Positions 1-23,807 of a stretch of DNA of 64,000 bases are shown piece by piece. Both the position numbers and the translations under genes were made by a program. Below the pieces are notes generated by a model. That model was not told the origin of the DNA and searched no databases. It saw nothing but the letters and a program-made list of their open reading frames with translations. Source of the stretch: Lytechinus pictus (lineage: Eukaryota); the NCBI RefSeq assembly GCF_037042905.1, contig NC_087245.1, forward strand, positions 19,222,001 to 19,286,000, given 5' to 3'. Position 1 is the first letter of the stretch; each line of letters opens with the position of its first letter.

Positions 1-380
1 TATCATATTTGTACTTGACTACCTGTGTAAAATAGTACAGGTTAATGGGTGTTGCATTTCCTTGAAGTGAGAGCCATTTGCCTTCAGAAAATTACCCTTA
101 AAAAAATATAATATAATAAAATAAAACTAAAGATGTTTCGAATATTAATGAAGTAAAGAACAGACAAACTGTATCGACTTGGTACATGAGAGTCGATTTT
201 TTTAGTATTCATTATTATGAGTAAAACATATGAAATAAATTTGAACATATGATTTTTCTGTCAGCAGAACAAGTTCAATCTTGGATCCTGTGTTTGATGT
301 GGACACACCAGGAGAAGCCTGTACCAAGCAGGAAGAAACTGAGCAGGAGAATGGTGGGTGACATCTGTCCACAACGTGGG

Positions 381-413
381 TCAGTCTTCCTCGTCATCAT
401 CCTCAGGCACGTC
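381..413 (-). pseudogene. Orphaned C-terminal codons (DV-PEDDDEED*) of the minus-strand ORF, left of the insertion
   Basis: Removing 414-19046 restores one open frame ...LEDWTDVADVPEDDDEED-TGA(383-381). Confidence 0.35.
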
Positions 414-441
414 TATGGCGCGCCATTTGTTTCATAAAGGC

Positions 442-1377
442 GATAAACTCAGTTTATCGCCGAAAAACCTAGTTTATCAATCGAAAAACCTAGTTTTTCA
501 ATTGAAAAACTAAGTTTTTCGCCGATAAACTTAGTTTTTCGCCGATAAACTAAGTTTATCACTTGAAAAACTAAGATTATCAAGAAAAACTAAGTTTATC
601 GCCGAAAAACTTAGTTTTTCGATTGAAAAACTAGGTTTTTCTTGATAAACTTAGTTTTTCAATTGAAAAACTAAGTTTATCGTCGAAAAACTAAGTTTTT
701 CACTGATAAACTAAGTTTTTCAATGAAAAACTAGGTTTTTCAATGAAAAACTAGGTTTTTCAATGAAAAACTAGGTTTTTCAAGTGAAAAACTTAGTTTT
801 TCTCGATAAACTTAGTTTTTCAAGCGATAAACTCAGTTTTTCATTTGATAAACAGAGTTATTTGATAAACTAAGTTTTTCAAGTGATAAACTAAGTTTTT
901 CGAATTGAAAAACCTAGTTTATCGAATTGAAAAACCTAGTTTATCGAAATTGAAAAACCTAGTTTATCACTTGAAAAACCTAGTTTATCGCCGATAAACT
1001 AAGTTTTTCAAATCTGATAAACTAGGTTTTTCAATTTCGATAAACTAGGTTTTTCAATTCGATAAACTAGGTTTATCGCCTTTATGGGACAAATGGCGTT
1101 CCATAAGGACGCCATTTGTCCCATAAAGGCGATAAACTCAGTTTATCGCCGAAAAACCTAGTTTATCGAAATTGAAAAACTAGGTTTTTCGATTCGATAA
1201 ACTAGGTTTTTCGATTTGAAAAACTAGGTTTTTCAAGTGATAAACTAGGTTTTTCAATTTCGATAAACTAGGTTTTTCGATTCGAAAAACTAGGTTTTTC
1301 GATTCGATAAACTAGGTTTTTCGATTCGATAAACTAAGTTTTTCGATTCGATAAACTAGGTTTTTCAATTTCGATAA
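442..1377. repeat. Left terminal array of 17-bp palindromes GAWAAAC-NNN-GTTTWTC with 2-5 nt spacers
   Basis: Roughly 40 units with ~20-21 bp period, interrupted at ~1078-1130 by two back-to-back terminus-like motifs. Confidence 0.95.
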
Positions 1378-2727
1378 TCAGGGTTATTTACTGTAAGCCA
1401 GTAGTGGGCGCCATTCGACCCTGGACATGGAGAATATTGGAAGGCTCTAAGTTTGATTTTGAGTTTTTCCCCCCTTTTTACCGGACCGGAGAACAAGATA
1501 TGATTCTGTATATTTAATAGAAAAGATTATGAGCAAGATTCAAGAAATTAGCCAGCGACCTTATTTGTTGAGGGATAGGAATCCTAACGTTAACCAAATC
1601 TTCGTCGGTGACTCGAGCCGGTGCAATGAACAATGTGAGTGGGTCATACGGTACCAGCGCCTGAGCAGAGCAGCCCGGGGCGTCGTCGGGCGAAAGTTCG
1701 GTCGAAAACGTTGCTACAGCTACTGTCGGTGAGCCGAAACAGCCAAGCCGGAGTCCGCAGAATTGGTAAAGCCTATGGATAAGATTATAGAAAAACTAGA
1801 CCTACGGTACTGAATACTAAATATCACTACCATGAGAAAGGGTATGGCCATGGATGAATTTCGTTAGTCATTGACTGCAAGGGCAATGCTCGCCAAAAAA
1901 AGCTTAAGTTAAGACAGATCTGACACAAATAATTCTGGATCTATAACTTAGAGTTTCACGATAGAAAAATGAGCTTGCTCATATATGGCGTTGAGAAAAA
2001 AAAGATGAGAAAGTGCTACAGCTAGGTGGTGAGAAATGCGATTCAAGAGTTGGGTTTCTCAAAGCATTGACCTGTCAAAGGAAGAGTCAGAGACAGAGAA
2101 AATGTTCAAATACTAATGCCCACACGGCCACAGGTTGCCAAGCCCAAGAAGATCTACATGTACACATGGTCATGGAAGTGAGCAGAATGTCGGCCGTGGT
2201 CACGACCCAATCATAATGCATTTTGGGGCCATGATGGATTGAGATCGTGTTTTGACCTCATAGTCATATCAGCAAAAAAGCATGTTTACATTCAACGACC
2301 CGTGATTGTGAAGGCCAGACAGCCCCTCGTCATAGCGTCCATTTTGTTACGGATCTGCCAGCATCGCTCAAAAAGCGCTTCTTGTTCGAGCAACAGGTAT
2401 ATCGTTTGAGGAAAAGTGAGAACAAATCTACGAGCATCAGGCTTATTGGTACAAATCTCCAGCTACATAGTACATGTAGAGTACAAAGAGAAGGGATCAT
2501 CTTCACCATGGCATGCAGTGATTAATTGAGATAATTGGTCGATATTATCAGAATAATTCCATAACAAAGGATTACGAGAAAGTTTGACAGTGAAGTCTGC
2601 GATTCTCAAATTATTTATTATTTCACTCGTGTTCCTGTGATGAGAAAGAAAAGGAATCCACTTATTCATCTACAAAGTTATTTTACAAGAATAATCATCA
2701 AAATCATCAATACATTGTGTTTATCAA

Positions 2728-5230
2728 TAGGAGTGTGCTATAAATGGGTGATTTTTGGTTTTACTGTGCCAACAGTTTTTGTCTCGCCTGCATATAAAAC
2801 GAGACTATAGGCGCCGTTTTCCGATGGCGTCGGCGTCAACATCAAATCTTAACCCAAGGTTAAGTTTTTGAAATGACATAACTTCAAAAAGTATATGGAC
2901 CTAGTTCATGAAACTTGGACATAAGGTTAATCAAGTATTACTGAACATCCTGCCTGAGTATCAGGTCACATGACCAAGGTCAAAGGTCATTTAGGGTCAA
3001 TGAACTTTGGCAGGTTGGGGATATTTGTTGAATTACCATCATAACTTTGAAAATTTATGGATCTACAATGTAGTTCATGAAACTTGGGCATTAGGTTAAT
3101 CAAGTACCACCAAATATCCTGTGCGAGTTTCAGGTCACATGAACATGGTCAAAGGTCATTTAAGGCCAATGAACTTTGGCCGTGTTGGGGGGTATTTGTT
3201 GAATTACCATCCTAGCTCTGAAAGTTTATGGATCTAGTTCATAAAACTTGGGATATAAGAGTAATCAAGTATTACTGAACATCCCCTGTGAGTTTCAGGA
3301 CACAAAACTAAGGTCAAAAGTCAGTTTAAGGTCAATAAACTTAGGCCATGTTGGGGTAATTGTTGAATTGCCATCATTACTTTGAAAGCTTATGGATAGA
3401 GTGAATGAAATGTGGACATGGGTGTAGTTGACAAGTTTTATTCACCGTCCAAATGTCATTTATAGTCAATGAACGTGGTATAATGTCATTATATGAATGG
3501 TGTTTTTGTGAATGATTATTTTATAGTAGTTTTCAAAGTTAGCACTGCTGCTATATTAAATCGCGTAATGCAGGCTAGACTGCCAGAAGCACTCCACTTG
3601 TTTCGTATTCCTTTAACCTTATCTCAACATGAAATGACAATATTATTTGTCTCTGGTCACGGTGGTCCGAGAAAAAAGTGTGCCGGGCCCAAATCTAAAG
3701 TGGCCGCCAAAATCCCCCCAAATCACAGTTTTGGCCACAACTTCTTTCTTGGTGGTCATTTTATCTGGTTTTGGTGTCTATTCATGTTTTTTTGGGGGGC
3801 AGGCAATTTGTTTTTCCTAAAATTAGTTCTTTTAAACCATTATTTGTAAAGTTAAGAGGTGATTTAACTTAAATTTGCAAATTTTTTGACCCTTTTTTAA
3901 GCAAAATTAGGTTCCATCGTCTTGTGGTTCTTGGATATTAGATGACACCAGTTGACCAGTAGTAAGCAGCTTCATATAGCTATATTGCTTTTATTCCTCT
4001 AAATTGAGTTTAAGACGGATATTTGCGAAATACATCTTATCAAATAAGAAAATGTAATTTACGGTATCCATAGGGGTGGCACGGTGTACAATATATGGTA
4101 CATACTGTACACTGCATACATATCCATGCATTGACCACCATGGCATACAACTAGGACTTTATATATATACCAGTGGCATGCATGTAGTAGTGAGCTTCTG
4201 ATGTTTAGAATTAGATTGTGACTTGTGAATTTGATTGCTTGTTAGCTGATGAACATGATGTAACCCGATGATGAACATAAATTGCATGTAAACATCATGT
4301 AGTGTACGTACATACATGTACATCATATTTTCAGCCACATCTTCATTTGGCAGCTTGTTTTTACCTGGTATTCTAATCCTATATTATGGAGTCAGGTATA
4401 CCACATGTGGTAATGCTGGTCAATGGCTTTCAGGATTCCATGCAAGTTACCATTGGATGGCAAAGTTACCATAATCAGAAAGCCAGTGTAAGTGCCATAA
4501 TAGGGGGGGGGGTGACTTTAATCCATTGTTAAAGATATTTTCCTCCCCCCCCCCCCCCTGAATGAGCATAATTGACAAAATATGTCTTCAATCTGAGACA
4601 AAACATACAGTATCTTCAATTTCTCAATAAATCATTTAGTATCACACTATAGTTTATATACAGACCTTGTCATGATGGTCAATGCATGAATATACATGAA
4701 TGCAGTGTAGTATGTACAATACAATGTATACTGTATAGCCCCTATGGATAATACAATTTTTTTTTTCAATAATATATTTTTCGCAAATATCCGTAAAAAC
4801 CAAAGTAGAAGAATAAGAGCAAATAGCTATTTGAAATTATTTGCTATTATGGAACTGGTATCGTCCAATATCCAAGAACCACAAGAAACCTAATTTGGGG
4901 CTGAAAAGGGTATTGTATGTGTAAATGTAGGTAAAATCACCTTTTAACTCCAAAATTAATGGTTTTTAAGTAATCATTTCAGGTTAAACAAATTGCCTGC
5001 TCCCCCCCCCAAAAAAAACCCAACATATTATATGTGGGCAAAACTTTGATGGGGGGGGGGGGGGGGTTGGCAGCCATTTTGGATTTTGGCCTGGCACACT
5101 TTTTTCTCGGACCCGAGGCAAAAAATATTTGTCATTTCATGTTGAGATACATTACAAGGAATAGATCAAAACTGTTGCCATATTAAAATGTCAAAAAAAG
5201 TATTTTTGATCCATGTATAGCCCACTCCTA
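2728..5230. mobile_element. Non-autonomous DNA transposon with long diverged TIRs (TAG...CTA termini, Academ-like), interrupted by a HINE
   Basis: TAGGAGTGTGCTATAAATGG vs CCATGTATAGCCCACTCCTA. Inverted matches continue inward (3620-3690 vs 5090-5150; 3920-3950 vs 4855-4885; 4065 vs 4740). No clean TSD seen. Confidence 0.65.
2781..3600 (+). mobile_element. Helentron-associated non-autonomous element (HINE/DINE-1-like) with ~120-bp internal tandem repeats, copy 1
   Basis: 5' subTIR GTCTCGCCTGCAT, short GAGAC inverted repeat, GGC-rich linker, tandem units, then 3' subTIR ATGCAGGCTAGAC and end CCACTTG. Inserted in a T run without a TSD. Confidence 0.75.
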
Positions 5231-6797
5231 TGATCAAAGGGGTTTTGCTACTGAAGATTTTAAAGGCAAAGTTTTAAATGTTAAAGGAAACTTAGATGAT
5301 GAAAAATTGTCTGAGATTTTCTTATTTTTATGTCACGACCTGTCCTTTGGTAAATAGGAATTGTGTTGATATCTCAACATGTCTCTCTTTCGTTTAAGTT
5401 GAAACTGATAACTGACAATTTATATTTCATACATATTATTTAATTTTTGGTTTCTTACAAGAAACAAAAAATAAGGTATTGTTTTATGACTTTCATATGA
5501 AAGATCTGCCATTATCATAATATTACTACACATGTATTTGTTATTTACACGACTGTTTCCAAGTTGTTGGGGCTCCTGGCTGGTTCCATTATCAATTGGC
5601 CTCATGAAGATGAAAGTGGTTAGGGTATTTGAATGAAAATACATATAAATCAAGGATTTTGACAGGATACACTTTTCCAATAATTTTATGGTGCATATTA
5701 TTTATGTAGACATATGGTGCTATTCATTAAGCGGCTTAAACATGTACCATCGTTATCCTTGAGAAATTATGTTCAATGGAAAACAAATATTTCTCTTTTT
5801 TGCTTTTGTTATTGTTTCTGTGTTTCTCAGAGTAGTCAGGATAGTGATGTATGTCTTAAACAAATCCCCGAAGGATTGATGAAAAAAAAGCTGTACTTTA
5901 CAATACATTTTTGTTTGTAAAAGCATCATCCTTTTTGTAAGAACTCATACATCTGGTGTAAGGAAACATTAAGAGCTATAGCTTGATGTATGTAGCCACT
6001 TCTTCAATTATTTTGTTTGTGTTTATACTTTGATAATAACTAATCTATTCCAAGTCCATTGTGAATTGAACATCTTGGCCTATAGGGTATTATAGAGCTC
6101 AATACTGCCCTGGTTACTGTACATGATTGTATATTGTCTTTGTAGACGTTTTTTGATAAATACTAGGAAAAGCTATTAGGAGACTAGGAGTGGTTTTTTC
6201 TTTTGTTTTTGTTGTAAAGTTGTACTTTGTTATGTTTTCTTTCACAATTCATTGAATGCGAAGTTTTTGATGGAAAGTATGTGATTGGTCAGGATCAACA
6301 CTTCAAGAAAAAATCTATAGGTTTTTATTATCTATTGAGATACATGTTGGGTTCGTTTTATAACCATTGATTTGTAAAGATGTTCAGACAGAACTTAGAA
6401 AGTTTACAGAGAATTCATTTTAAAACCACTCCATGCTTTATTATCATTATTGTGTTTTTTTTTTCAGAGTGTGACTTGTTACTTATGGCAATGTTGTTTT
6501 TGTAAAACAAAAGAACAATTTGTTCTCTCATTTAAGTATTTTTTAAAGGAACAAAGCTAAAATAGAAGCTTGATATTATTTATCTTTTCTGTATAATGAC
6601 TCATTGCATTAATTTACACCTGGCATAAGAAGTAAATTTGAGATAATTTTGTCTCCACAGTGTCTTTTTTAATTCTCTATCTCTATCCTTAACTTGAGTT
6701 TTTTTAATACTGCCATGTATGCTTGTAGTGGCAATGTATATGTAGCTTCTAGTAAAACCTTTCAACATGTAACTTTTTGTGACTGAAAGTGATTTTT

Positions 6798-8147
6798 GTC
6801 TCACCTGCGAAGCATAGTGAGACCTTATGCGCCGCTTTTCCGACGGCGTCAACACCAAATCTTAACCGAAGTTTAAGTTTTTTAAATGACAGTATAACGT
6901 AGAAAGTATAAGGACCTAGTTCATTAAACTTTGCCATAAAGTTAATCAAGTATTGCTGAACATCCTGCTTGAATTTTGAGTCACATGACCAAGGTCAAAG
7001 GTCATTTAGGGTCAATAAACTTTGGCCAAATTGGGGGTATTTGTTGAATTACCATCATAACTTTAAAAGTTTATGGATCTGATTCATGAAACTTGGACAT
7101 AAGAGTAATCTTGTGCCACTACACATCCTGTGTGAATTTCAGGTCACATGATCAAGGTCAAAGGTCATTTAAGGTCAATGAACTTTGGCCAAATTGGGGT
7201 ATTTGTTGAATTACCATCATAACTTTGAATGTTTATTGGTCTGGTTCATAAAACTTGGACATAAGAGTAATCAAGTATCACTGAACATCCTGTGCGAATT
7301 TCAGGTCACATGACCAAGTTCAAAGGTCAATGAACTAAGGCCATAATCTATTGAATTACCATAATAACTTCGAAAGTTTTTGGATCTGATTCAAGAAACT
7401 TGGACATAAGAGTAATCATGTACCACTACACATCCTGTGCGAATTTCACGTCACATGACCAAAGTCAAAGGTCATTTAGGGTCAATAAACTTTGGCCAAA
7501 TTTGGGGTATTGTTGAATTACCATCATAACTTTGAAAGTTTTTTGGTCTAGTTCATAAAACTTGGACATAAGAGTAATCAAGTATCACTGAACATCCTGT
7601 GCAAATTTCAGGTCACATGACCAAGTTCAAAGGTTAATGAACTTAGGCCATAATCTATTGAATTACCATAACTTCTGAAGTTTTTGGATCTGTTTCAAGA
7701 AACTTAGACATAAGAGTAATCATGTACCACTACACATCCTGTGCGAATTTCACGTCACATGACCAAAGTCAAAGGTCATTTAGAGTCAATGAACTTTGGC
7801 CATATGGGGGTATCTGTTGAATTACCATCATAACTTTGAGAGCTTTATGGATCTGATTCATGAAACTTGGACATACATGTAAGAGTAACCAAATATCACT
7901 GAATGTCTTGTGTGAGGTACAGGTCACATGACCTCTCAAAGTTTATAGATATAGTGTATAAAATGTGGATATAGGGGTAATCAAGTATCTCTGACAAGTT
8001 TTAGATCACATGATCAAGGTCAAATGTCAATGAACGTAGTATTGTATCATTATACATGAATGGTGTTTTTGTGAATAATTATTTCATAGTATGTTTCAGA
8101 GTGTGAATCGTTTGATGCGAGTGAGACTGCCAGAGGCGCTCCACTTG
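6798..8147 (+). mobile_element. HINE/DINE-1-like element, copy 2 (about 9-10 internal ~120-bp repeats)
   Basis: Same ends (GTCTCACCTGC ... GTGAGACTGCCAGAGGCGCTCCACTTG) and same internal unit (GAAACTTGGACATAAGAGTAATC...GGTCACATGACCAAGGTCAAAGGTCA). Confidence 0.8.
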
Positions 8148-8738
8148 TTTTTTCATGGAATGATTACCAAGATATTGACTGATTATGTTGATTTATTAAT
8201 AATTTATTGAAAAATATGAATGTTTGATTGATCACATTACACATTGATTATGAGTAGACTTATTGATAAATTGTTTAATAAATGATTGATATGTAAAACT
8301 TGATGCACCACTCCCGATTTTCATTATTTATCATTAAATCAACATTGTGCTCTTGACTTTCTTACGCACATGTAATAGCAATCTGTCTGTCAACAGGAGG
8401 GGAGGGAGGGGGCTAAATGTTCTCTTAACCCTTATTCCATCAACCTAATTCTCCCACTAAGTGCCATCTCACTCCCTATTATCCCGACCCCCATGAAGAT
8501 CCACATGATAAAGTTAAAATGCTGCCCAGAAAAGTACAATTTGTGTTCACTCATGCATTGAAGTTCAATTTAATAATTTATGAAATTTACTTGAACAACC
8601 AAACTGGTCATGATTGATCATTAATTCATCACAACACCCTTAATTTTTCAGGTTTCAATTAAAGGATTTGCCTCTCAGAACTGGCAGAAATTGTAAGGCT
8701 AATTCATGCCCAGCCTTATTTTCATACCCTTTCTTTAA

Positions 8739-9303
8739 AGAACAAGTCCATCCCAACAAATAGTGGATTGAATAAAAAGAGAAATATCAAACAAGTATAA
8801 CACTGAAAATTTCATCAAAATCGGATGTAAAAAAAGAAAGTTTTGACATTTTAAATCTTTGCTTAATTTCACAAAACAGTTATGCACATGCTGGTCAGTA
8901 TGCAAATGAGGAGACTGATGACATAATCCACTCACTATTTCTTTTGTATTTTATTATGTGAAATATGGAATATTCTATTTTTCTCCTCTTTGTCAAGTGA
9001 AACAACGATTAATTCCTCCCTGAACATGTAGAATTAGCATTATTTAATACTATATTGTTCAGACATGTTGGTCCTTATTGTCAAATCTATAAAAAAATAA
9101 AATATTGTATAATTCAAACAATATAAAACAAAAGAAATAGTGAGGGGCATCATCGGCCGTCTCATTTGAGTTGTGCATAACACTGTGTTGTGAAAAATAA
9201 GCAAAACTTTAAAATGTCATAACTTTCTTATTTTACATCCGATTTTGATGAAATCTTCAGCGTTTAGCAAGTTTGATTTTTCTCTATTTACTCAAATCAA
9301 CAT
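8739..9303. mobile_element. Kolobok-type MITE (TTAA target), right end lost
   Basis: TTAA|AGAACAAGTCCATCCCAAC start with an internally inverted arm. Same family as 20658-21213 and 51650-51850. Confidence 0.7.
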
Positions 9304-10049
9304 AGTGGGGAGTGCTCGCTAAACACTTATGGGTGTCTTTGAAGGTTGACTTTATTGGCTATCCCCCCCCCCCCCCAAAGTGATATATTTTTTTGTTTGG
9401 CAGCCATTTCAAAAGTATATAGTTTTTTTTTGGACGCACTGACTGTACAGGAGCTTCCATCAAATAGATATTACTATTGTATCAATGTCAGGGTCGTATG
9501 TAGGGGGTGCAAAAAGGGAAAAGGGGCGCGGATAAAGAAATTGAAAAAAATGAAAAGGTAAAAGAATAACAGTGCTGAAAAGGGATACCTCTTGTTATTA
9601 CCATGGTAATGTAGTTTCCAACACATTTAGGAAATTAATCTTGCATGTCTTTATGCAGGGATGAATATTCATGCCACTTTTTGATTGATGTTAATCATAC
9701 TAATTCTCTAAAAATTCCAACAAACAGAAATATTCCTTTTTTAACGCAAATCTTGCTGCCGGTTTGCATTTTGATATTTTACTTTTCATTAATTCTCACA
9801 AATAGTTCTGAAATACATTATTCTCTGGTTCTATTGTCAAAGCTTTTCAATACGCGCTGATTTGATAAGGGAGATATAAATCATCTTCATAGATTTCTAC
9901 TAGTAATCATTGAAATGTCCTTTTTGGGTGAGAATATAATATAAAGTCAAGTCATATAAAATATAATCTCAAGCATGGTAAAAAATAATATGACATATAC
10001 TTAGTACTACATGTAGTTTCTATGTATGAAATCACAGATGAAATAATCG

Positions 10050-10850
10050 TGAAGATGATGATCAAGATGTGGTGATGAGGATAATGATGTGGGTGAAGAT
10101 GATAATTATAGACTGGTGATGGTGATGAGGTGGGTGGTGATGATGAGGATAGTGATAGTAATGGTGTCGATGATGGTGATGATGAAGCCATATGAAACAT
10201 AAATAATAAGAGAAAGAAAAGAGAGAAGATTTTCAGTATTATGTCAGAATCTATCAAAACGTAAAATTATGTAATAAAAATATAGAAAAGTTTGCTTGCT
10301 CACAATTAAAAAAAAAAAATACTGGCACAATCTGCCATATCTTGTCCCTCTCAAAATCTTTGGCTCATTACGCCAATGATAATTTATTTGGTGGTGATAA
10401 TGAAAGTAATTATATTAATAATGATGGTGATTATGATGGTCATGATAGTGACGATGATCATGATGGTGTGGTGATGGCAATGATATTGATGAAGTTGATG
10501 ATGATCACTCCCTTTTCATCTCCAACCATTTTCACATCTCCAGCTTTCATCTCAATCCTTCCTCTCATCTCTAACCTCTCCTCATGTCAACCCTTCCACA
10601 TCGTTTCCATCCACCTCATCTCCCTGCTCGTCTCTTGTAACCCACTCATCTCTAAACTTTATCATCTCCATCCCTCCCACATCATCTCCATCCATCCTTG
10701 CATCATCCCCATTCCTCCTCTCATCATCTCCATCCACTCGTCGTCCCCACCCTTAACTCCATCACTCATCATCATGGCCATCCCACCTTTCATCATCTCC
10801 ACCACCCCCCCCCCCCCCCCATTTAATCTTCATCTCTCCAATCATTTCCA
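10050..10850. repeat. Degenerate (GAT)n / (CAT,CCT)n low-complexity tracts
   Basis: GATGATGGT-type runs at 10050-10190 and 10395-10505, then a CATC/CCT-rich run. These explain the spurious ORFs 9952-10257 and 10342-10866. Confidence 0.8.
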
Positions 10851-10861
10851 TCTGATTACCA

Positions 10862-11025
10862 GGTGACCCAACATTTGCTCCTGCGATAATTGCCCCAGGA
10901 TTAATTCTGTCTTCGAGGGTCAGGGTTGCAATAGGGTTTCATGGTAGGTTTATAGGGGTTGAAGCTGAATAGTGTGTGGAATTTACAGCGGAGCAATTGT
11001 CGCCAGAGCAAATGTCATGGAACTC
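10862..11025. mobile_element. Short MITE with ACATTTGCTC...GAGCAAATGT inverted ends
   Basis: ACATTTGCTCCTGCGATAATTGC vs GCAATTGTCGCCAGAGCAAATGT. A related remnant lies at ~54930-55062. Confidence 0.55.
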
Positions 11026-11255
11026 ATTACCACATCTCTCATTAAAGGTTGAATATTAAGCGGGATAAAGAATACTTCATAGTGAAATAACCCAATATTC
11101 AAAATACTTCTTTGGAGTAAAGTGGTTTTATTAAGTAACAATAAGATAAACTTAATCAGATGTACAGTTACATTGTAACACATATTGAACTGAGGTGTAT
11201 ATAAAATACATGTATATTATATCCCACAAAAATCAAATCCTGGTTCAAAACTTAA

Positions 11256-11832
11256 AGGGATGGTCCGGGCTGAAAATATTTATATCTTAATACATAGAGT
11301 ATAATTCACTGAGCAAAATGCCGAAAATTTCATCAAAATCGGATAACAAATAATAAAGTTATTGAAGTTTAAAGTTTAGCAATATTTTGTGAAAAAAGTT
11401 GTCATGAATATTCATTAGGTGGGCTGATGATGTCACATCTCCACTTTCTGTTGTCTTATGTTATTACATAAAATCATATTTTTTTCATTATTTCATACTT
11501 GTCTGAATGTCCCCCTTATAATGAAATAAGTTGCAGCAATAAATATTTAATGCACTATTCAGTTGACAATCCAATTTTTCTAGTTCTTGGAGGAAAAAAA
11601 ATTGAATAAACCTAATTTCATATAATAAAATACAAAAGAACAAGTGGAGATGTGACATCATCAGCCCACCCAATGAATATTCATGACGACTGTTTTCACA
11701 AAATATTGCTAAACTTCAAAATTCAATAACTTTGTTATTTGTTATCCGATTTTGATGAAATTTTCTGCATTTTGCTCAGTGAATTCTACTCTATTTATTA
11801 AGCTACACATACTTTCAGCCCAGGCCATCCCC
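11256..11832. mobile_element. Kolobok-type palindromic MITE
   Basis: TTAA|AGGGATGGTCCGGGCTGAA ... TTCAGCCCAGGCCATCCCC|TTAG, with ~200-bp inverted arms. Confidence 0.8.
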
Positions 11833-12384
11833 TTAGATAGCATTACATTACCAGATACATTATTATGATGATGAATATGACAATAGCATAGTAATATCAT
11901 AATTCCAGTTGGGAACAATATCCTCTGTTTTGGTGTCTATGTAAAGCTAACAATAAGGACAATCTTAAAATTACAATAGTGGCCAATTCAATTAACATTT
12001 ATCAAACAATTGCACTTTGTTTCAGGAATATACATCCTGTTATAAATTACTAAATTCATATTTGGTTACCATGTCAATTACATAAACCCCAACTTACCTG
12101 GAGGGATTTTCAGCCATCCCTCATCATTGTTTGTCATAAACAAAAACTGGCCATACAGGGTTTGCGATTCAGGCGGCCTCAAAATAGTTGGAATGATAAG
12201 AATGATATAGAGTACTGACAATATTATAGCGATATCAAATATTTTGAAGCTCTGCAGTCTGCACCTCTTTTGCTACTGAAACAAATCAAACCATTTCAAT
12301 CTTCACTTTGTCTTCAATTTAGAAGCAAATAATTTTTTTAAATATATTAAAGTTAAGATAATTGCAACTCATTCAATCTTAACA

Positions 12385-12834
12385 TGAAAGTTCACTTGGA
12401 CAAAACAAGTCTGCTATGCAGGTGAGACAAAAAAATTGGTGAAGGTTTGAGGAAAATCTGTTAAATATTAAAAAATGTATTAGAATTCTAAGCTTAGCCT
12501 TTGGATTTGTGGCGTCACACACACGAGCAGCTGCCAAATAAAGTTATGTAATATAAAATGCATGAATTTCATTTTTTAATGGTTCCAGAGGACATATTTT
12601 TGTTATTTTGTGTTTTCTTTTCATGTTTGGGTGTAAAATGATTGGTCCTTTGATATAGAAAAAAAAAATTCATTATGTAGAAATGCTGCCCGAATATGAC
12701 GTTACAACTCAAATAATTGAAATTCAAATAACTTTTTAATTCTTTGATGGATTTTCCTCAAAACTTAGGCAATATTTTTATTATTTTTTTCTTCTGTTTT
12801 AACAATAAACTTTTTGTCAGCGTGAACTTCCCCT
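12385..12834. mobile_element. Diverged Kolobok-type MITE
   Basis: AAGTTCACTTGGACAAAA vs TTTTGTCAGCGTGAACTTCCCT|TTAA. Confidence 0.55.
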
Positions 12835-12902
12835 TTAAACCCACTTGAACGATACTTGGTATCATTTGGAAGATTTATAAAACAGATATTACACATGAAT
12901 TA

Positions 12903-13482
12903 AACCTAAATAGACTGGGCTATTTCGATGCCTAAGAAGACTGTGGGGGGGGGGGCTGATTCAGCCCCCCTCCTTATGATCTCGGCCGTTGATCGCGACG
13001 AAACTTGGCACCCGCGTTACCAATGGCATAATATACAAAACTACAGGATCAAACTCTGTGAAAAATCTCATTGCTAATTAATTATGCTAATTTATGCATG
13101 AAATCAGAATTTTGCTTTAATTAACTAAATAATGCCCCTAAAATGCTAATTTTTGGTACACAGACACTTTATATTAATCTGTTCAAATGTACTAACAAAA
13201 AATTTCAAAATCACATTAATTTTTTCATGTATTTAACTGTTTTCAAAATTTCTTATGTATTTCTTTGTTTTTTATTGTTTTTTCAATGGAAATTGTCGGG
13301 GACTTTATTTGGACCATAAATAAGATGGAATTAATTGATTTCAATCAGTAAATGGAAAAATTATACATTTATGAATTTCGGCTAAGAACTCTATTTGCAT
13401 TGGATTTGTACACAAATTTACGTTTTTGTGCAATTTTGGGTCTGCATGCACTTATGAAATGATGCGTAATTTTGGAACCCCC
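12903..13482. mobile_element. Truncated piggyBac-like non-autonomous element (same family as 57069-58627, opposite orientation)
   Basis: ACCTAAATAGACTGGGCTATTTCG is the reverse complement of the 58600-58628 end. Internal segments match 57230-57600 in inverted orientation. Confidence 0.65.
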
Positions 13483-13798
13483 CGTATCCAAAATATCCGT
13501 GAGTAGATGTCTGGGGGGGGGGGGGGGGGTAAATGTCCAGGGGGTAGATGTCCGGGGGCTAGATGTCCGGGGGGTAAATGTCCGGGGGGTAAATGTCCGG
13601 GGGTAAATGTCCGGGGGTAGATGTCCGGGGGGTAAATGTCCGGGGGTAATTGTCCGGGGGGTAGATGTCCGGGGGGTAAATGTTCAGGGGTAGATGTCCT
13701 AGGGGGTAGATGTCCTAAGGGGGTGGATGTCCGGGGGGTGGATGTCCGGGTGGTGGATGTCCGGGGGGTGGATGCCCAGGGGTAGATGTTCGGATACG
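13483..13798. repeat. G-rich 13-16-bp tandem array (GGGGGTARATGTCC)n bounded by CGTATCC...GGATACG inverted ends (foldback-like MITE)
   Basis: About 20 units seen directly, with short terminal inverted repeats at 13483 and 13798. Confidence 0.8.
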
Positions 13799-14990
13799 AT
13801 ACAATATATATATTAAAAAAGTTAATTTTTCATTCAATTCGATTGTTCTTTCTTTCTTTTAAAGAATTTGGAAATACATGTACCAAAAATAAGAGTTGAA
13901 CTTTGATATACCTGCATGAACTGCATAAAAAATTATTTATTGTATCTATGAAGCTGTATTACCTCATCGATCAAAGGACTGCCCAAGTCATTGGAATTCG
14001 GTACTCTTTCTTTTAATGAAAGAAATGGAAAATCCGTCTTGTTGAATATGAAACCTCTTCTCGTCCATGGTGTAGGTTGGTACCAGCCCAAGTGCTTGTA
14101 TCCTCCAGGAGACCCGTTGTTTACAACTTTTAAATGGAAGTTTCATTAAAGCTGCGACAGTAACAAGTAAACAAATGAGAGACGTGTTTTTTATATCGAA
14201 AAGCAAGTTTTTAGATTTTGATAAGGCAAGTTAAGTTTTTCAATTTTAGTAGAATACATTTCTTTTTTCAATGACATATTCTTTCATATTGAGAAACTAA
14301 GTGTTTCAATTTTGATTATAATCATGATTACATTCTATGTCAGTTGTGCATCCCCATCCTGCTCCTACAAACTTAGAAAACACTAAAAATTTGTAATTAT
14401 GTATACGAACAAAAATAAACAATGAAGACAATTTCCTACAAAACTGTAAACTTCATCATGATAACGTCAATACTGAGAATTGTTCACCCCTGTGCATTTT
14501 GTGTATTTTTTGTAGCCTTGCACAATTTGCAGATATGACCCATATGCCCCTATAAAACATACCTTTGTTAAGTCAGGTGGCTTGTTGACGAAAAGGAACT
14601 ATTACGGATGGCAAATTCCTCTTGGGATTGTATAAGTACAACAATCAACTGAGCTGGCCTCCGAAGAACCAATGTAACTGTGTTTATTCAATCTAGGAGG
14701 TTAAAAGAAAAAGAGGGAAAAAACATCCTCAGTTTCATGACCATAAATATATCACTGAAATTGTAGTTTACATAACTTTCTATATCATCATGAACCTACA
14801 TGTAATGCATATTTGACTCTACAGTCTGAATTAAATGGACTTGACAAATAAATTGAATATTGTTGGTAAAAATAATCTTCTATGTCTGAACAGGTGTCTG
14901 CAGCAGTTAATAAATGATGCATATTTGTTGCATTAAACTCTGCCAAAGACAAATCTAAACGTCTGAAAGAACACTAATGTTTGCATTTCA

Positions 14991-15184
14991 ACTGGGCGTT
15001 GTGGCGTGCGCCTGTAATCCAAGCTACATGTACGTGGGGAAGTTACAATTTGATGCAGAAGTTCGAGGTTCGAATCCTGGTCACGTCTTTCGGATGGTGA
15101 CGTTAAAGGTCGGTCCCAGACGTAAATAATCATATCTGATTGATACACGTCTGACAAAACTCAAATACACACACACACACACAC
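14991..15184 (+). mobile_element. SINE with 7SL/Alu-domain-like head, B-box, Deu/Nin-domain-like segment and (CA)n tail, copy 1
   Basis: Head ACTGGGCGTTGTGGCGTGCGCCTGTAATCCAAGCTAC, B-box GGTTCGAATCC, body GTCTTTCGGATGGTGACGTTAAAGGTCGGTCCC, (CA)n tail. Confidence 0.7.
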
Positions 15185-15186
15185 TA

Positions 15187-15371
15187 ACTGGGCGTTGTGG
15201 CGTGCGCCTGTAATCCAAGCTATGTGAGGAAGTTACAAATTGATGCAGAGGTTCGAGGTTCGAGCCCTGGTCACGTCTTTTGGATGGTGATGTTAAAGGT
15301 CGGTCCCAGACGTAAATAATCATATCTGATTGATACACGTCTGACAAAAACTCAAATACACACACACACAC
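15187..15371 (+). mobile_element. Same 7SL-headed SINE, copy 2 (head-to-tail with copy 1)
   Basis: Near-identical to copy 1 apart from a few substitutions and small indels. B-box GGTTCGAGCCC, (CA)n tail. Confidence 0.7.
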
Positions 15372-15541
15372 TATCTGTGCAGTTTCCACATATAAAAACA
15401 AAACATTCTAATGCTAGGTGCATAATTTATCCTTTTTCTGAAATAATTGTTTTTCCTAATTTTGGAAATCCTTTTCTCTCACAAAACCTTACTTTTGGTT
15501 AAAACAATATCTGCTATCAAAAATATCAACTAATTCAAATA

Positions 15542-16644
15542 GTCACTCTCAATGGGACGGTTCGCCGATGAATATTCATTAGATTGTGGTCGTGTGCACG
15601 TGTGTGTGTACAATACCGAGTGTAAAAAACAAAGAAAGTTTTCAAATGGTGTGTGTGTGTATAACACAACGCAGGAGTTTATTTTACAGAGAATGAGTAG
15701 TATAGTGCAGAAAATTAAAGTGTACAATGAAGTTTTACAGAGGAGGAAATAATATAAATACATATGGAAGACAATGCAAGATGAGGTGAGGCAAGTACAG
15801 TGATTTTTTTTTCTCAAAAGTATTAGTAGTAGAGGAAATCATGGGGAAAAAATATATTATAGAGGACAATGTAACATGAGATGAGGCAAGTCTGCAATGA
15901 GGTTTTTTTTTCAAAGGAGGAGATAATACAAATATATATCTAGAGGACAATGTAAGATGAGATGAGGCAATTAAGTGTACAGTGAGGTTTTAACAAAGAA
16001 TGTATAACTAGGATAAGATAAAAAGAGGACAATGTAAGATGAGCTGTGGTAAGTGTACAGTGAGGTTTTTTCAAAAGAGGAGATGATAAAAAAATACCGG
16101 TATGTAGAGGACAATGTAAGATGAGGCACGTGTACATTGAGGTTTTATCAAATAATGTATAATGATGATGTAGACTGTAGAGGACAATGTAAGATGAGCT
16201 CTCACTGTACACTTGCCTTGAGCCCTTGATCATCTCATCTTACATTGTCCTCCATATTTGTATTATCTCCTCTTGAAAAAACCCTCACTGCACACAAGTT
16301 TGCCTTATCTCATCTTACATTGTCCTCAATAATATATTTGTATTATTTCCTCTACTAATACTTTTGAAAAAACAACATCACTGTACTTGCCTTACCTCAT
16401 CTTGCACTGTCCTCCATATATTTATATTATTTCCTCTTCTGTAAAACTTCATTGTACGCTTTTATTTTCTGCACTATACTACTCATTCTCTGTTAAATAA
16501 ACTCCTATCCCTACGTTGTTTTATACACACTCACCATTTGAAAACTCTCGTTATTTACACTCGGTATAGTATACACACACACACACACACCCATGCACGT
16601 GATCCAATGAATATTCATCGGCGAACCGTCCCATTGAGAGTGAC
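15542..16644. mobile_element. ~1.1-kb near-palindromic foldback/MITE with internal GAGGACAATGTAAGATGAG repeats
   Basis: GTCACTCTCAATGGGACGGTTCGCCGATGAATATTCATT is exactly inverted at 16606-16644. The arms run ~400 bp toward a centre near 16200. Confidence 0.85.
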
Positions 16645-17004
16645 GTAGGAGCTGGACATTTCATCGCCCTTTGTTGTCATCAAAAGTGGCTACCAGAAAA
16701 TACAAGCATTGAACCTAGCCGCTTGTAATGGGCACTTAATACATGCGTTAAAACTTTCACTTGACTCGTGCACTTTCCGTTCCAAATTTTCACATTTGTA
16801 TGTTACATATATATAGATCCTATTTATCTCATACTTTACTCACTTTCTTGGTGGAAAGTACCATGACTCAGAAAGTCAGGAATGAAACATAATGGTGTAA
16901 TTTGCCTGAAAAACTACAGCGAAACAGCTAAAATCATGCCTGCTGCACATGCCTGCTGGCCTGAAGCAGGCCTGGGCCCAGGAGTCCAAAGTGCATTTAA
17001 ACAT

Positions 17005-17485
17005 AGACATGGGACTAGGGTAGATTGTGGTCTCAATAACAAAATAAACAGAAATTATGCACTTACCATGATTATATGGATGAAGCCAGGTCAATCGTGT
17101 GGCAGTATCCTGACATCGAGGTACAGACTGGAATCTCAAAAAAACGAAAAGTTATCTCCTGCTACCCCAGTCTCGATCAGCCATTTTGTTATGAATTTTG
17201 AAAAAAATTAGGAGATGTATCACGAGGTATTCTGTCCCGTGAGTATGGGTAAATACACGGTGAGCTCTGACCTGGGACTCACTGGGAGAACTTCTCGTTT
17301 TTTTGAGGTTCCAACTTCCAGTCCGTGCCTCGATGTCAGGATACTACATGTACCACTCGATAGACCTTCATCCATCGTGGTAAGTGCATAATTTCTGTTT
17401 TCACAATTTATCTTGCTAGATTAATAGATATAGCGAACATAATCTACCCTTGTCCTGTGAGTATGGGTAAATACACGGTGAGCTC
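17005..17485. mobile_element. Diverged inverted-repeat element (MITE remnant)
   Basis: 17047-17160 is inverted at 17284-17401. A 33-bp direct repeat GTCC(C/T)GTGAGTATGGGTAAATACACGGTGAGCTC occurs at ~17234 and ~17452. Confidence 0.6.
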
Positions 17486-18180
17486 CTGGGCGCCGGCCCG
17501 CGAAGCATGCCGGCGCTCCCGGGCCTGGGTATGATCAATGATTGATACTTTCACTGTGTTGAAAATGAAATACATCTTCCGTGCTTTTTTCTTCTTGCTG
17601 TGCTGGATAACCTCAATGGTAACACTTAACAGGCACTCGCGCTCATGCCTAAGTTACAACATTAGCATCGAGTCACCATGGACAAAAGTTCTTCTTACTT
17701 AGGTCTTAGCTATCAATATCATACTCAAAGCAGCAGAATCGTAATCGTACCCAGGCAGCAGGGAGAATCCACACCGCGGCCGGGCAGCTTCGCGGGTGTG
17801 GGCTCTCTGCCTCTGGGTTAGCAACCAAGCGGCACGGAAAGCATCGAACCATCATCTTCTCCGTTGTTCTCCCCCGATATTCGGGGCAGGGATCAGCGGT
17901 ATCCGCTGCTCAGGTTGGGGTGTCAGGTTTGTTAACACCATGAAAGCCGACAACCATGGCTGCCGTTGTATTATAAAAAAATATATAATTGGAACTTACC
18001 TTGGCTTTAGTTTCAGTTATCCAGCAGTACAGTTGGCGTTGATGAATTTGACGTCCAAAACTAACTTCAGACGTGGTAAAAGTGGTAAAATACTGTGTTT
18101 CTTGTAATAATCGCAATGGCAGCTTTGTTTGCCGTGTAAATGCATGCAGTACGTGCGCGCGCGCGCCCGCTCACAAATTC

Positions 18181-19012
18181 GATAAACTGAGTTTTTCAAT
18201 TTCGATAAACTAGGTTTTTCAATTCGAAAAACTTAGTTTATCGAAATCGAAAAACCTAGTTTATCGGCGAAAAACTAAGTTTATCGGCGATAAACTAGGT
18301 TTTTCGATTCGATAAACTTAGTTTTTCGATTTCGATAAACTAGGTTTTTCAATTCGAAAAACTTAGTTTATCGAAATTGAAAAACCTAGTTTATCGGCGA
18401 AAAACCTAGTTTATCGCCTTTATGAGACAAATGGCGTTCTTAGAAAAACTCAGTTTATCACTTGAAAAACCTAGTTTATCGCCTTTATGGGACAAATGGC
18501 GTTCTTAGAAAAACTCAGTTTATCAGATTCGAAAAACTTAGTTTATCAGAATTGAAAAACTAAGTTTATCACTTGAAAAACCTAGTTTTTCGCCGATAAA
18601 CTAAGTTTATCACTTGAAAAACTCAGTTTATCTAGAAAAACTCAGTTTATCAGTCGAAAAACTAAGTTTTTCAAGAAACTCTGCTTTTCACTTGAAAAAC
18701 CTAGTTTTTCATTGAAAAACTTAGTTTTTCATTGAAAAACTTAGTTTATCGGTGAAAAACTTAGTTTTTCGCCGATAAACTTAGTTTTTCAATTGATAAA
18801 CTAGGTTTATCAAAAAAACCTAGTTTTTCAATTGAAAATCTAAGTTTTTCGGCGATAAACTTAGTTTTTCTTGATAAACTTAGTTTTTCAAGTGATAAAC
18901 TTAGTTTATCGGCGAAAAACTAAGTTTATCGGCGAAAAACTTAGTTTTTCAATTGAAAAACTAGGTTTTTCGATTGATAAACTAGGTTTTTCGGCGATAA
19001 ACTGAGTTTATC
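18181..19012. repeat. Right terminal array of the same 17-bp palindromes
   Basis: Roughly 38 units, with internal terminus-like motifs CGCCTTTATG(A/G)GACAAATGGCGTTCTTA ending at 18442 and 18507. Confidence 0.95.
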
Positions 19013-19040
19013 GCCTTTATGAAACAGATGGCGCGCCATA

Positions 19041-21772
19041 CACGTCCGCAACATCAGTCCAGTCTTCAAGTCCCAACTTCACTTCAAATCGAGGACACAA
19101 TGTTGCAGTATTTTCAAAGCACTGATAGTCATGGTGACAACATAACTGTAGATAAATTTTTCTCCAGCTTGTCCCCCATTGTCCCACACTGTAAAAGTTA
19201 CCTCAATGCCAGCTCCATTGCTATGAGGTTAAATTTCGGTCGTCTGAACATTGAACATACTACTATAGGAATTAAAGTTTTTGTGTCATCTAACTCCAAG
19301 TCGATTCTTATTGATGTTATAAACATATCACAATTTAAGAATCCAAATATGTTTCGTAGATTAAAAAAAAAGTTAACGGAAAATGCTCTATAACTTGCTA
19401 TGCTCCACCGCTAAAAAGAGAGCTGATATCTTATTCCCTCTGACCATGGAGCTAATAGCTCTATGCTCCGACATCACTCAATACTCTTTCGATTGTAACA
19501 TAAAAGATGCAATGTCAGTTATGCAGCATCACCAACAAATTAAAAGCGGTGTATATATGATTACATCTGAATTACTTATGATAAATCCATATGAAATAAA
19601 TCATTTGCAGGAAATCTACAACTTTAATGACTGATATCGTATTATAAACAACGACACCATTAAATGTGTTATTCTAATTTCCACTTGAATTTTTCACTTT
19701 GACATCTCCATAGGCAGCGGAAGCGGGGACAGGTCCCCCCCCCCCCCCTAAATTTTTAGTTGATAAATTTTTTTTTTATTTTTTGGCTTCCACCGCCAAT
19801 GTACATCTCCCATTGTTACAGTTGCAAGTCAGTCTCAATTTGCAGAAATTACGATTGTGAAGGATTATGATCTTCCTCTTTTGTAGATCTGGAAAATATC
19901 GTCTGAGCATGTTCACCATTTATTAAAAATATATTTATTTCTTAAATTATACTTGAATTTAAATTCAGGATTTGTTCACAGATAAGAGAAGTTGAGCATT
20001 TTGCACATCACAGAAATTTGGTTCATGCAAATACATGTATTAACATGATCACTAGTAATGCACTATCAAATATCAATACATGAAACCAGTTACTGTGAAA
20101 ATAAAAATGATGGGTACTGGACGGAACGTTTCTGGACTAATGTTTTATTTTGGAAACAGAGATCTAGGATTGTTTGAAATATGACAAAATGTTCGAAACA
20201 AAATTTCATCTCTAAACAGAATGGCAATGACACTCCTGTTGCCTGTTTCATAGAGAGGTACAACTATCATAACTTTGTCTTTAATATGGCGCAACATCCA
20301 ATTATAATTGTGGTTTCCATGGTAGTTGCCATAATGTTAAAGTACTTTTGAAATGGGCCCCTGGACATGAAGAATACTGACAAAAGAAAGTTGATTGTGA
20401 AATAAAAAGAATACATTCATCTTCAAGAAATTTTTTGACGCCCCATGCATTTTTTGTTGTTTATATATCTCGTATTATTTTTTTCTGTAATAAATTAATG
20501 AGCATCACTTTTTTTTCAACAACAAATATAATGTAGATTGCTGAAGAACCTAAAATATATTTGGAGCTGAACTAAACTCAAAATAAAGATGTCGACAAAA
20601 TGAAGTCCAGTGTTGCTCTTATTTATTGGGCCAGACCTCACTTGGCATTGCTTTTAAAAAACAAGTCCACCCCAACAAAAAAGTTGATTTGAATAAAAGA
20701 GAAATATCCAACAAGCATAACACTGAAAATATCATCAAATTCAGATGTAAAATAAGAAAGTTATGACATTTTAAAGTTTCGCTTAATTTTCACAAAACAG
20801 TTATATACACATCCTGATCGGTATGCAAATGAGGAGACTGATAACGTCATTCGCTCACTATTTATTTTGTATTTTATTTATATGAATATGAAATGTAATT
20901 TTCTTCTCATTGTCAAGAGAAACAACAATTAATTCCTCCCTGAACATGTAGAATTAGCATTGGTTTAATCAAGTTGGTCATTATTGTCAAATAAATGAAA
21001 TATTGTATTTTTCAAACAATAAAAAAAAAGAAATAGTAAGGGACATCAACTGTCTCATTTACATATCACTGAGGTGTGCATATCACTCTTTTGTGAAAAT
21101 AAGCGAAACTTTAAAATGTCATAACTTTCTTATATCCGATTCTGCATGAATCATGCTAGTTTGACTTTTTTCTATTTATTCAAATTAACAGTTTTCTTGG
21201 GTGGATTTGACCTTTAAACAAATAATATACCGTATTCAAATATGTTCAGAAATAATTTCGTATAACCAATTTAACTAATAGAAACAGAGAGAATAGAAGA
21301 ATCAAGAAAAGTGGAAGAACTAAGGGTGAAAGGTGACCAATGAGCACGAGGTCATGAATGAAGAAGAATGTTCTGAATATAAATGAGAAGACAATAGAAA
21401 CATGTGGAGTTGTAATGGCATTAGAATCTGATATATAAACTAAGGAGTAAGGAATGAGATAAACTAAGGATTGAGATGAACAGGTGACAATGGCATAGAA
21501 ATGGGAAGTGAAGTATGGAAAGCAAAGTGTAAAATAAAAAGATTAATCATGACAAAATTCAATTACATTTAAATAGAACGATCAATTCCCGTATAGATAT
21601 GAGTGAATAACAAAGAATACTTGTGTCTGTCCAATGAGCAGTCCGTCAGATTGATGCTTCTTGGTGGAATTCAAGACAAGATTAATTTATACATAGGACA
21701 TAGATACACGAAAATCCTTAAAAATTACTTCTTGCCACGCCTGAAGCAGGCTTCTTTGCCTTGGGTTTTCAT
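19041..21772 (-). CDS. Putative small spliced ORF (97 aa before the insertion) of unknown identity; last exon split by the 18.6-kb transposon
   Basis: Exons 21772-21729, 21659-21621, 19888-19853 and 19188-19041, continuing at 407-381. All introns are GT-AG phase 2, giving MKTQGKEACFRRGKKSINLTDCSLDRHKSTKEEDHNPSQSVGQWGTSWRKIYLQLCCHHDYQCFENTATLCPRFEVKLGLEDWTDVADV|PEDDDEED*. No family recognised. Confidence 0.35.
19709..19801. mobile_element. Tiny hAT-like MITE
   Basis: CATAGGCAGCGGAAGC...GCTTCCACCGCCAATG with 8-bp TSD GACATCTC/TACATCTC (1 mismatch). Confidence 0.65.
20658..21213. mobile_element. Kolobok-type MITE, full length
   Basis: TTAA at 20654-20657 and 21214-21217. CAAGTCCACCC...GGGTGGATTTG TIR. 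Homologous to 8739-9303. Confidence 0.8.
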
Positions 21773-21804
21773 GGGTACATTGGACGGTTTTTGCCTGCTG
21801 GACG

Positions 21805-21929
21805 GGATCCGTGCACGGCTTTATTGCCGTGCCGTGGGGCAGTGGAAACTGGAAAACAGCACGGCGTGCCGTATGCCGTGCCGGAATGCCGTGCACGGTC
21901 GCCGTGCCGGATGCGGTGTAAACGGGCCT
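21805..21929. repeat. CpG-rich GCCGTGC repeat cluster ending in GTGTAAACGGGCCT|TAA (PIF/Harbinger-like terminus); overlaps the presumed divergent promoter region
   Basis: About 8 copies of CCGTGC/GCACGG. The terminus and TAA flank are typical of Harbinger ends. No partner TIR found in the window. Confidence 0.45.
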
Positions 21930-23807
21930 TAACTCGGGAGCTCCGTCGCCGGTAAGCGGCGGGGGAGGTAAAGATCCTTAACCAATTAAAAATGAGACTA
22001 GCGGTAGCGGGGCAAACCTGTTCATTTTTTTTGTTCAGTATTGATCTAGAGAATTATACAACAATTTGTACTAAATTAGCTTGCTATTTTACCCCCTAAT
22101 CTTGATAACGCCATCCATCAAGTTGTTAATTATTCCAAGACCAAGTCCAAGTGATTAAAAAATGACATATTTTGGGGTAAATTTTGGTTGTGTTATAAAA
22201 AGCGACTGACTAAACTAAGTCAAAGAGTAAAGTCATCACTCATGTCATGACACTGACACATTTGTTAATGTTGGGCTAGATTAAATTTAGGCATCCAAGC
22301 CTGGTTTAATGCAATTCTGTTGCACTGTAAGCCAAGTTCAAGATATTGTATGTGCGGATGGTTGTTTGTAGTATTGTACTTTGTATGGACAAGATGGCAG
22401 TTAATTTTTTATTGCTTTGTTTGAAACTGTCAGGTAATGGATTATGGCAGTGTGTCTCAAATTTGTGCATGGTCATTTATCTAAAAACTAGACCCTATTC
22501 AATATCTTTGAAATCTGACATCATACACCAAAAAAAGCAACCTAAATTACCCTTTGACATACATTTCTTAATGATGAAATAAGTATTCATGAAAATATTG
22601 ACAAAATATCAAAAAATTTGTCACCTTTTTTTCAGGCGTTAACACTCATTCGGAAAAAAAATCCTAAATTGAAATATGAACTTCTTAACAAGCATCAAAG
22701 TTGGTAATGGTATCATAAAAAATCTGAGTAAAACATGGTACTGACCTTACCAATTCTATAGCATTCTGTCATCCATATTCATAGATATATCTTACCTTAT
22801 GAGATTGAGTTTTCTTTGAAACTCCATGACTCTTTTGTCCGTGAAATAATGCCACACTTTTTTAAAACGATTAATTTTTTTTCTAGAACAGTGATTGGAA
22901 TATAATTTTGAGATCGCGATACCAATGAAACCCCTTGACTTGCTTCACTTTAAATCAGTAATTTTTTAGTCTACAACCTCGCCGTTACTTATGTGAATTG
23001 GTTTTTTATAAAATGTTAATATTTTTAAATTAATTTTAGCCTGATAAATAGTTATGAACCCATCAGTCATACATGTACAAGAAAGGGAAACACAAACATT
23101 CATAATATTTGTGAGATTTGAAGCATAAATTTTGAGAGCCATAACAAGAAACTGTGAAGCTTCTGATGAATGGAAGGCCAAATATTTGCAATTTATTGTC
23201 AAATCTCCAAGAGCTACATGTAAAATGAGGGAAGATTGCTGATGTTTAGGCCATCAGCTTGGTATTGCAATGGAAAGCAGTGCTATGTAATTTGTACTGG
23301 CAGTGCAGGTATGCAAATATTGGAGTCAATTACAGTATGTCACAAACTTGCTACACCTTTGTATGTTATTCATATGAAATTTCTTCATTTTCTATATTTG
23401 ATAGTAAATAATCTCTTGATTGAATCATTTGCAAGTGAAGTAACAGTAATGGCAATTCCACTTCTTGAATGAGGATTCCAACCATGTTTTATTTTATTGT
23501 AAGAAATAAATATTTGATATTTTTTAAGTGATGAAATACAATAGATTAAAAAAAAAGATTTGATGAGTGTGTGTCATCATCAACCCCTTCATTTGCTTAC
23601 TACCAAGGATGTGTATACAGTGTATCACCAATTTGTAAGTATAATATACCAAACTTTAAAATCCAGAAATATTATGTTTTGCATTTTGGCTTTTTATTCA
23701 AGCCAACATTTGGTTTGGGTGGACCTGACCTTTAAGACTTTCTAAGATGTGTTGTGTATAGTTGTATACAATATTAAATTATTTTGTTTTGTTTTGTCAT
23801 CCCTCAG

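Follow-up and report, generated by a model that had tools for sequence, protein, structure and literature searches.

How can 18.6 kb of repeat debris with no transposase gene of its own have jumped recently as a single unit? The question is raised by a 64,000-nucleotide window of the Lytechinus pictus genome (assembly GCF_037042905.1, contig NC_087245.1, positions 19,222,001 to 19,286,000), which holds an 18,627-bp element that starts with TATGG at position 414 and ends with CCATA at 19040. This element is very probably a non-autonomous member of the IS3EU/GingerRoot group of DNA transposons, one of 19 recent copies that probably owe their movement to a transposase acting in trans, from the lineage of a 66.7-kb element on contig C4. 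Here, G000 is the label of the genome assembly searched and the C numbers are its contigs.

Ends, copies and age of the element

Both inverted termini lie where a first-pass annotation of the window had placed them, and the perfect 6-bp target-site duplication (TSD) that it reported, CACGTC, is likewise present on both sides; the chance of a 6-mer match at the base composition of the window is 4e-4. The terminal inverted repeats (TIRs) are ~0.9 kb long and built of tandem 20-23-bp units. They flank a non-coding middle, as in foldback elements, and end in the TA..TA termini of IS3EU/GingerRoot, as does the whole family. In the left TIR, two terminus-like motifs lie head to head at ~1071-1137, with no TSD of their own. 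An Rfam scan returned 43 matches, mostly hairpins of the TIR arrays, with none at gathering score. The features at the borders of the element, with strand where one applies, are:

408-413: left TSD CACGTC, present as one copy in empty sites
414-1380, plus strand: left foldback TIR, with the TATGG terminus followed by the array of 20-23-bp units
18150-18155: TACGTG, the empty target of a nested insertion on C7, present here as a single copy
18176-19040, minus strand: right foldback TIR, matched at 95.9% identity by that of the 66.7-kb C4 element
19041-19046: right TSD CACGTC, equal to the left TSD
19047-21930: right part of the host repeat, a 7.2-kb multi-copy TIR element whose left part is window 1-407

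The 35-nt terminal sequence has 61 exact matches in G000, compared with none for a reversed control. Pairing these ends and tabulating TSD lengths, a check proposed in the annotation, gave a perfect 6-bp TSD for 26 of 31 paired elements. The C4 element is among the 26, as are 16 of 18 large family members; two ends without a partner and a further large copy, the 19th, whose ends are damaged, were not counted. CG is present in 18 of the 26 perfect TSDs but in only 6% of background hexamers, and the TSDs are 57% GC with a symmetrised consensus of nACGTn. The 19 large copies, including that in the window, are collinear, span 14.4-27.5 kb and carry the interior in the same order. Each unit bracketed by a single TSD has different flanks, and one copy on C7 is nested in another. 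Related elements of 0.5-2.5 kb with the same ends also exist.

The mean substitution divergence is 0.80% among 17 copies compared over seven blocks, and the window copy differs from its nearest relative by 0.23%. Its host is the 7.2-kb element, which has a 3-bp TAA duplication and which we take to be Harbinger-like by its signature. All five paralogous copies of this repeat that were examined contain an empty site with a single CACGTC, and they are 98.4-99.1% identical to the flanks of the window copy. The flanks thus rejoin seamlessly, as claimed. A frame across the empty site was considered as a host gene and rejected, as it belongs to the multi-copy 7.2-kb element, which has no long frame.

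The first-pass description of a young jump of an old element holds for the recent jump and for the old interior, but not for its dating by TIR identity. The outer 200 bp of the TIRs do differ at two positions only (14 and 163). However, the same two mismatches occur in 16 of 17 copies, while the 17th has an early indel and keeps position 14. They are therefore inherited differences between left and right ends and provide no clock. The youth of the jump rests instead on the 0.23% distance to the nearest copy and on the near-identity of the host repeat to its empty copies.

Indels and nested inserts are shared by copies on different contigs (C5a and C18c, 99.6% identical over 15.4 kb; C13 and C23), so derived versions have jumped again with their cargo. 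This bears out the claim that the element moves as a cargo-laden unit. As the largest inserts (7-9.4 kb) are each confined to one copy, repeated movement is shown for a size of about 18-20 kb. The C4a and C23 copies contain nested TIR elements of 7.0 kb and 9.4 kb with no frame of 150 amino acids, and the second C13 copy holds a full long-terminal-repeat element with a 1917-amino-acid frame. At C13:20835055-20835086, two family copies with separate TSDs lie 30 bp apart, reflecting either local hopping or a hot spot.

A candidate helper on contig C4

No transposase frame was found in the window element, in agreement with the annotation. Its longest frame is a low-complexity stretch of 218 amino acids, the IS3EU core motif is absent, and tblastn with the C4 transposase exons recovers only a shared repeat tail. 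Pfam gave no match for two candidate frames of the interior. On these grounds, a spliced transposase hidden in the interior was rejected, and with no IS3EU-type DDE transposase of its own the element is classed only as a non-autonomous IS3EU/GingerRoot derivative.

A Pfam rva_4 search of G000 gave 89 matches. One of these lies 10 kb inside a seemingly unpaired end, and walking left from it revealed the partner end. The resulting element (G000:C4:23224456-23291106; 66,651 bp) has the same ends as the family and the TSD AGCGCA. On its minus strand, three GT-AG exons provide 498 open residues, or 566 with a fourth exon. The last exon matches rva_4 with an E value of 1.5e-63, the catalytic triad is D210-D267-E302 (DD34E), and the motifs WHLD, GGIDGFSR, RIRxDxG and HNQRIERLW match by eye the Repbase IS3EU rows shown in Data S3 of PMC10045372. 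The ratio of nonsynonymous to synonymous differences (pN/pS) is 0.15 against a sister element. A spliced IS3EU-type DDE frame, which the annotation had suggested seeking between paired ends, thus lies within an element of the same ends. Together with the TA..TA termini and 6-bp TSDs it agrees with the proposed class, and it provides a candidate for the trans-acting transposase that had been implied. A signal-peptide-like start of this protein is likely incidental, given that the N-termini of homologues align by eye after it.

The C4 element is linked to the family by more than its termini. About 480 bp next to the right TIR are 80% identical between the two, with a conserved splice donor at 18000/17999 of the window, and window 17560-18170 occurs at full length only in family copies and in the C4 element. 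The corresponding feature is:

17578-18059, minus strand: subterminal segment with predicted promoter and first exon, matching the 5' end of the C4 transposase gene at 80% identity

In addition, small elements of ~2 kb carry the C4 left TIR, with 5-13 substitutions per 420 bases at the matching end in six of the seven compared. The presence of near-identical TIRs beside 80% identical subterminal DNA suggests that sequence may have been exchanged between TIR arrays.

Convergent to the transposase gene is a gene for a HECT-type ubiquitin ligase. On the plus strand of the C4 element, nine exons form an open frame of 414 residues that weakly matches UBX, and exons annotated as P0001 follow. A five-sequence profile hits HECT ligases over the length of P0001 (TOM1, E 1.2e-12), and the Cys is invariant in all five sequences. 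A pN/pS of 0.11 for two HECT exons, measured against a copy on C10, shows purifying selection on the gene. Sixteen HECT-like loci were found: 12 have a facing rva_4 match 4-21 kb away, one has a match on its own strand and three have none; at least two, and probably most, of the 12 facing loci represent one family, leaving about three lineages. One example is a complete 12.5-kb IS3EU element at G000:C3:48363569-48376080, with TACGG ends, foldback TIRs of 20-bp repeats, the TSD GATTGC and a 601-amino-acid HECT frame. A copy on C6 is 99% identical to it, and some ten further loci are similar. Given that its transposase is only 29% identical to that of C4, foldback ends and the HECT gene recur here across distant IS3EU lineages. 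A HECT gene is probably a regular second gene in elements of this kind.

A sister family with TATGGCGCGCCGTTTG ends has 6-bp TSDs and many copies of 0.2-6 kb, several of the short ones with a third, inner terminus that lacks its own TSD. A 5.2-kb copy (G000:C8:1873963-1879114) keeps the last transposase exon. Elsewhere on C4, a 35-kb tandem cluster (G000:C4:22364448-22399466) contains about 40 broken rva_4 matches.

Several observations weigh against movement by the C4 lineage. Among the 31 paired elements are five exceptions to the perfect 6-bp TSD: one has a 5-bp TSD, one a TSD displaced by five bases, and three have one or two mismatches. The C4 element occurs as a single copy, with 8 differences in the outer 200 bases of its TIRs, and no empty site was found for it, its flank being unique. 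The first coding donor of its transposase is weak (GTTTGT). P0001 alone falls under the Pfam HECT cut-off (E 1.5e-4) and has no HECT match in the PDB. Finally, the left interiors of the C4 and window elements are unrelated and the shared subterminal segment is only 80% identical, so the family is no simple recent deletion of the C4 copy.

Some of these points also favor the chief alternative, which is possible though less favored: the superfamily would be the same, but the enzyme would come from a relative absent in this assembly (carried by the other haplotype or other individuals) or from a sister family, with the C4 element as an inert look-alike. The single copy full of nested repeats and the limited subterminal identity fit this proposal, as does the partial transposase of the TATGGCGCGCCGTTTG family, which is related to that of C4 at 65% identity. 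An inert C4 element is countered by its two open genes, by the small elements that carry its left TIR, and by the lack of any closer transposase among the best 30 of the 89 rva_4 matches. For six other rva_4 loci, termini were not found within 40-70 kb.

A more ambitious form of the C4 proposal is tentative and rather unlikely. In this form, the C4 element would be a still competent giant IS3EU element that itself moved at several tens of kb. Its transposase would repeatedly move cargoes of 18-20 kb into CpG-centred targets and its HECT protein would remove a host restriction factor, while the window family would be a parasite kept compatible by exchange between TIR arrays. The C4 interior matches other loci over 24.9 kb, with 17.4 kb at <90% identity and 2.7 kb at >=95%; this suggests, but does not prove, that much of the element was already in place when it inserted. 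A 6.1-kb satellite (G000:C4:23268096-23274231; 23 copies of a 266-bp unit, 97% alike) sits between the two convergent genes. Both this satellite and a disrupted retroelement within an intron may have arrived later.

On the favored reading, in which the C4 lineage acts in trans on a non-autonomous family, an integrase-like enzyme would bind the 20-23-bp TIR repeats and join the TA ends to a target cut with a 6-bp stagger, and repair would then make the TSD. The founder of the family would have kept the right TIR and the transposase promoter but lost both genes. It would have gathered old repeats while immobile and then amplified from several source copies.

Interior cargo and its transcript

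The annotation had counted at least a dozen older, diverged repeats in the interior. Consistent with this, 15 segments that make up 68% of the interior have matches at 115 non-family loci, a biased set, with a median identity of 70-90%. The main interior features are:

1539-2737, plus strand: decayed coding-like piece that matches one other locus (G000:C17:20560641) at 72% identity
2776-8152: old nested dispersed repeats surrounding a family-specific block (5290-6780); they include 163-bp-unit repeats (2776-3602 and 6786-8152) and an inverted-repeat element (3606-5163)
8159-14486: block matching a second large foldback family, in its interior and arms, at 70-85% identity, with nested miniature inverted-repeat transposable elements (MITEs) at 8720-9303 and 11253-11835
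14000-14151, minus strand: exon of a spliced, apparently non-coding transcript, with the joint 14151/14563 (CT..AC)
14563-14950, minus strand: upstream exon of the same transcript, continuing past 14950, the end of the aligned stretch
15542-16644: nested inverted-repeat element, missing from related loci on C9 and C11

The piece at 1539-2737 is presumably a remnant of the first open reading frame of a long interspersed nuclear element, a label that Pfam did not support. The second large foldback family is the source of 8159-14486. Its loci lie at G000:C10:32.998-33.009 Mb, C16:22.572-22.580 Mb and C13:1.199-1.206 Mb, and its ends have GGACAGCCCGACC repeats, with CCGTA at one end. Two tandem units of ~190 bp at 14990-15371 end in CA repeats, and their 5' part matches metazoan signal recognition particle (7SL) RNA below the gathering score (E 3e-4 and 5e-5). 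These are possibly a 7SL-derived short interspersed nuclear element, judging from this match. To our knowledge, such elements are unusual outside a few vertebrate groups.

RNA reads were aligned to window 1400-14950 only. The minus-strand joint is present in all three RNA runs (2, 3 and 12 reads). It also occurs in a contig with a depth of 404, compared with 3.6 for the unspliced piece, from a run only guessed to be RNA. This depth, the recurrence of the joint and the presence of the exons in 19 copies could be taken to mean that the cargo is retained because the spliced RNA serves the element or the host. We consider this improbable: the modelled exons contain no open frame and derive from other repeats, the reads are not assignable to a single family copy, and the C5b copy has lost the predicted promoter but still has a perfect TSD. 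This non-coding RNA probably arises by read-through from the transposase promoter that the family has kept.

Relation to known transposons and significance

IS3EU and GingerRoot form one lineage with TA..TA termini and 6-bp TSDs (PMC10045372). Rust-fungus families have TAYGG..CCRTA ends, and extra genes occur in fungal families (PMC12730594). A second protein is on record in the Repbase IS3EU labels _1p and _2p (PMC10045372 supplement). The elements described here resemble this lineage in their TA..TA ends, GC-rich 6-bp TSDs, DDE motifs, second genes and captured DNA. Published GingerRoot elements are 3.9-12.9 kb long with TIRs of 100-150 bp and GC-rich TSDs (PMC6839031). In contrast, the TIRs here are 0.9-1.15 kb of tandem repeats, the gene-less copies reach 14-28 kb and the gene-bearing copy 66.7 kb, and the transposase is spliced and has a HECT-ligase partner. 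The structure and function of IS3EU are described as largely unexplored (PMC11934779). No link between IS3EU and HECT ligases was found in print, in a search that had Repbase entries and the 2019 Kojima review outside it. The size, foldback ends and HECT gene go beyond the printed IS3EU descriptions found; Repbase and bioRxiv supplements lie outside this comparison and may bear on the novelty of the size and the HECT gene.

Like the Drosophila FB, Galileo and Tetris foldbacks, the family combines long modular tandem-repeat TIRs, which may offer extra transposase sites, with a variable non-coding middle (PMC4079207). Those foldbacks are ascribed to Mutator or P, with a TSD of 8-10 bp in Tetris, whereas the family here has a 6-bp TSD and a candidate IS3EU enzyme. 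Foldback architecture occurs in several superfamilies (PMC4079207), so it does not tie sea-urchin TU elements to IS3EU, and the link suggested in the annotation is unsupported. Pack-MULEs are likewise moved in trans and loaded with foreign DNA, but they are mostly 1-2 kb and <7 kb (PMC6431247) and carry pieces of host genes; here, repeat debris has been moved repeatedly at ~18-20 kb. Natural DNA transposition is reported to drop above about 6 kb, and Teratorn, at 41-182 kb, is larger but a fusion with a virus (PMC6431247). Polinton/Maverick elements share the 6-bp TSD, long TIRs and a size of 15-40 kb. As the annotation had recognized, the window element is set apart from them by termini that are not of the AG type and by the lack of polymerase, integrase or capsid frames.

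A different superfamily with 6-bp TSDs (Polinton, Ginger2) or a Mutator-type foldback system is a very improbable mover. Polintons and Ginger2 do give such TSDs (PMC6839031) and most foldbacks are attributed to Mutator (PMC4079207), but the termini are TA..TA rather than AG.. or TG..CA, and two elements with the same ends hold rva_4 genes. The family lacks the 8-10-bp TSD of Mutator-type foldbacks. The TU elements of sea urchins have an 8-bp TSD. Least credible of all, and already refuted, is that the two ends are independent MITEs around host DNA or a segmental duplication: an inner CCATA at 1105 makes 414-1105 resemble a mini-element and 0.5-2.5-kb relatives exist, but 414-1105 has no TSD, one TSD spans the whole unit in 16 of 18 copies with differing flanks, and empty sites lack the entire 18.6 kb. 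Where the annotation had named the ways in which its reading might fail, we found 6-bp TSDs at other copies, a TSD around the whole unit, empty sites and no foreign transposase.

On sequence evidence, the window family is a real, young, non-autonomous IS3EU/GingerRoot family. The copy in the window is itself an unremarkable passenger within another repeat. What is gained is a specific candidate helper whose ends match those of the family; the two would provide an enzyme-and-ends pair for a barely studied group of transposons. The family supplies the inputs for an assay: a transposase frame that is open, ends that match it, a preferred type of target and natural cargoes close to 20 kb in size. 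The 12.5-kb C3 element is a more compact system for the same use, and this sea urchin is reportedly in use for transgenesis (PMC11361634). In addition, the constrained HECT gene makes the role of transposon-borne ubiquitin ligases testable.

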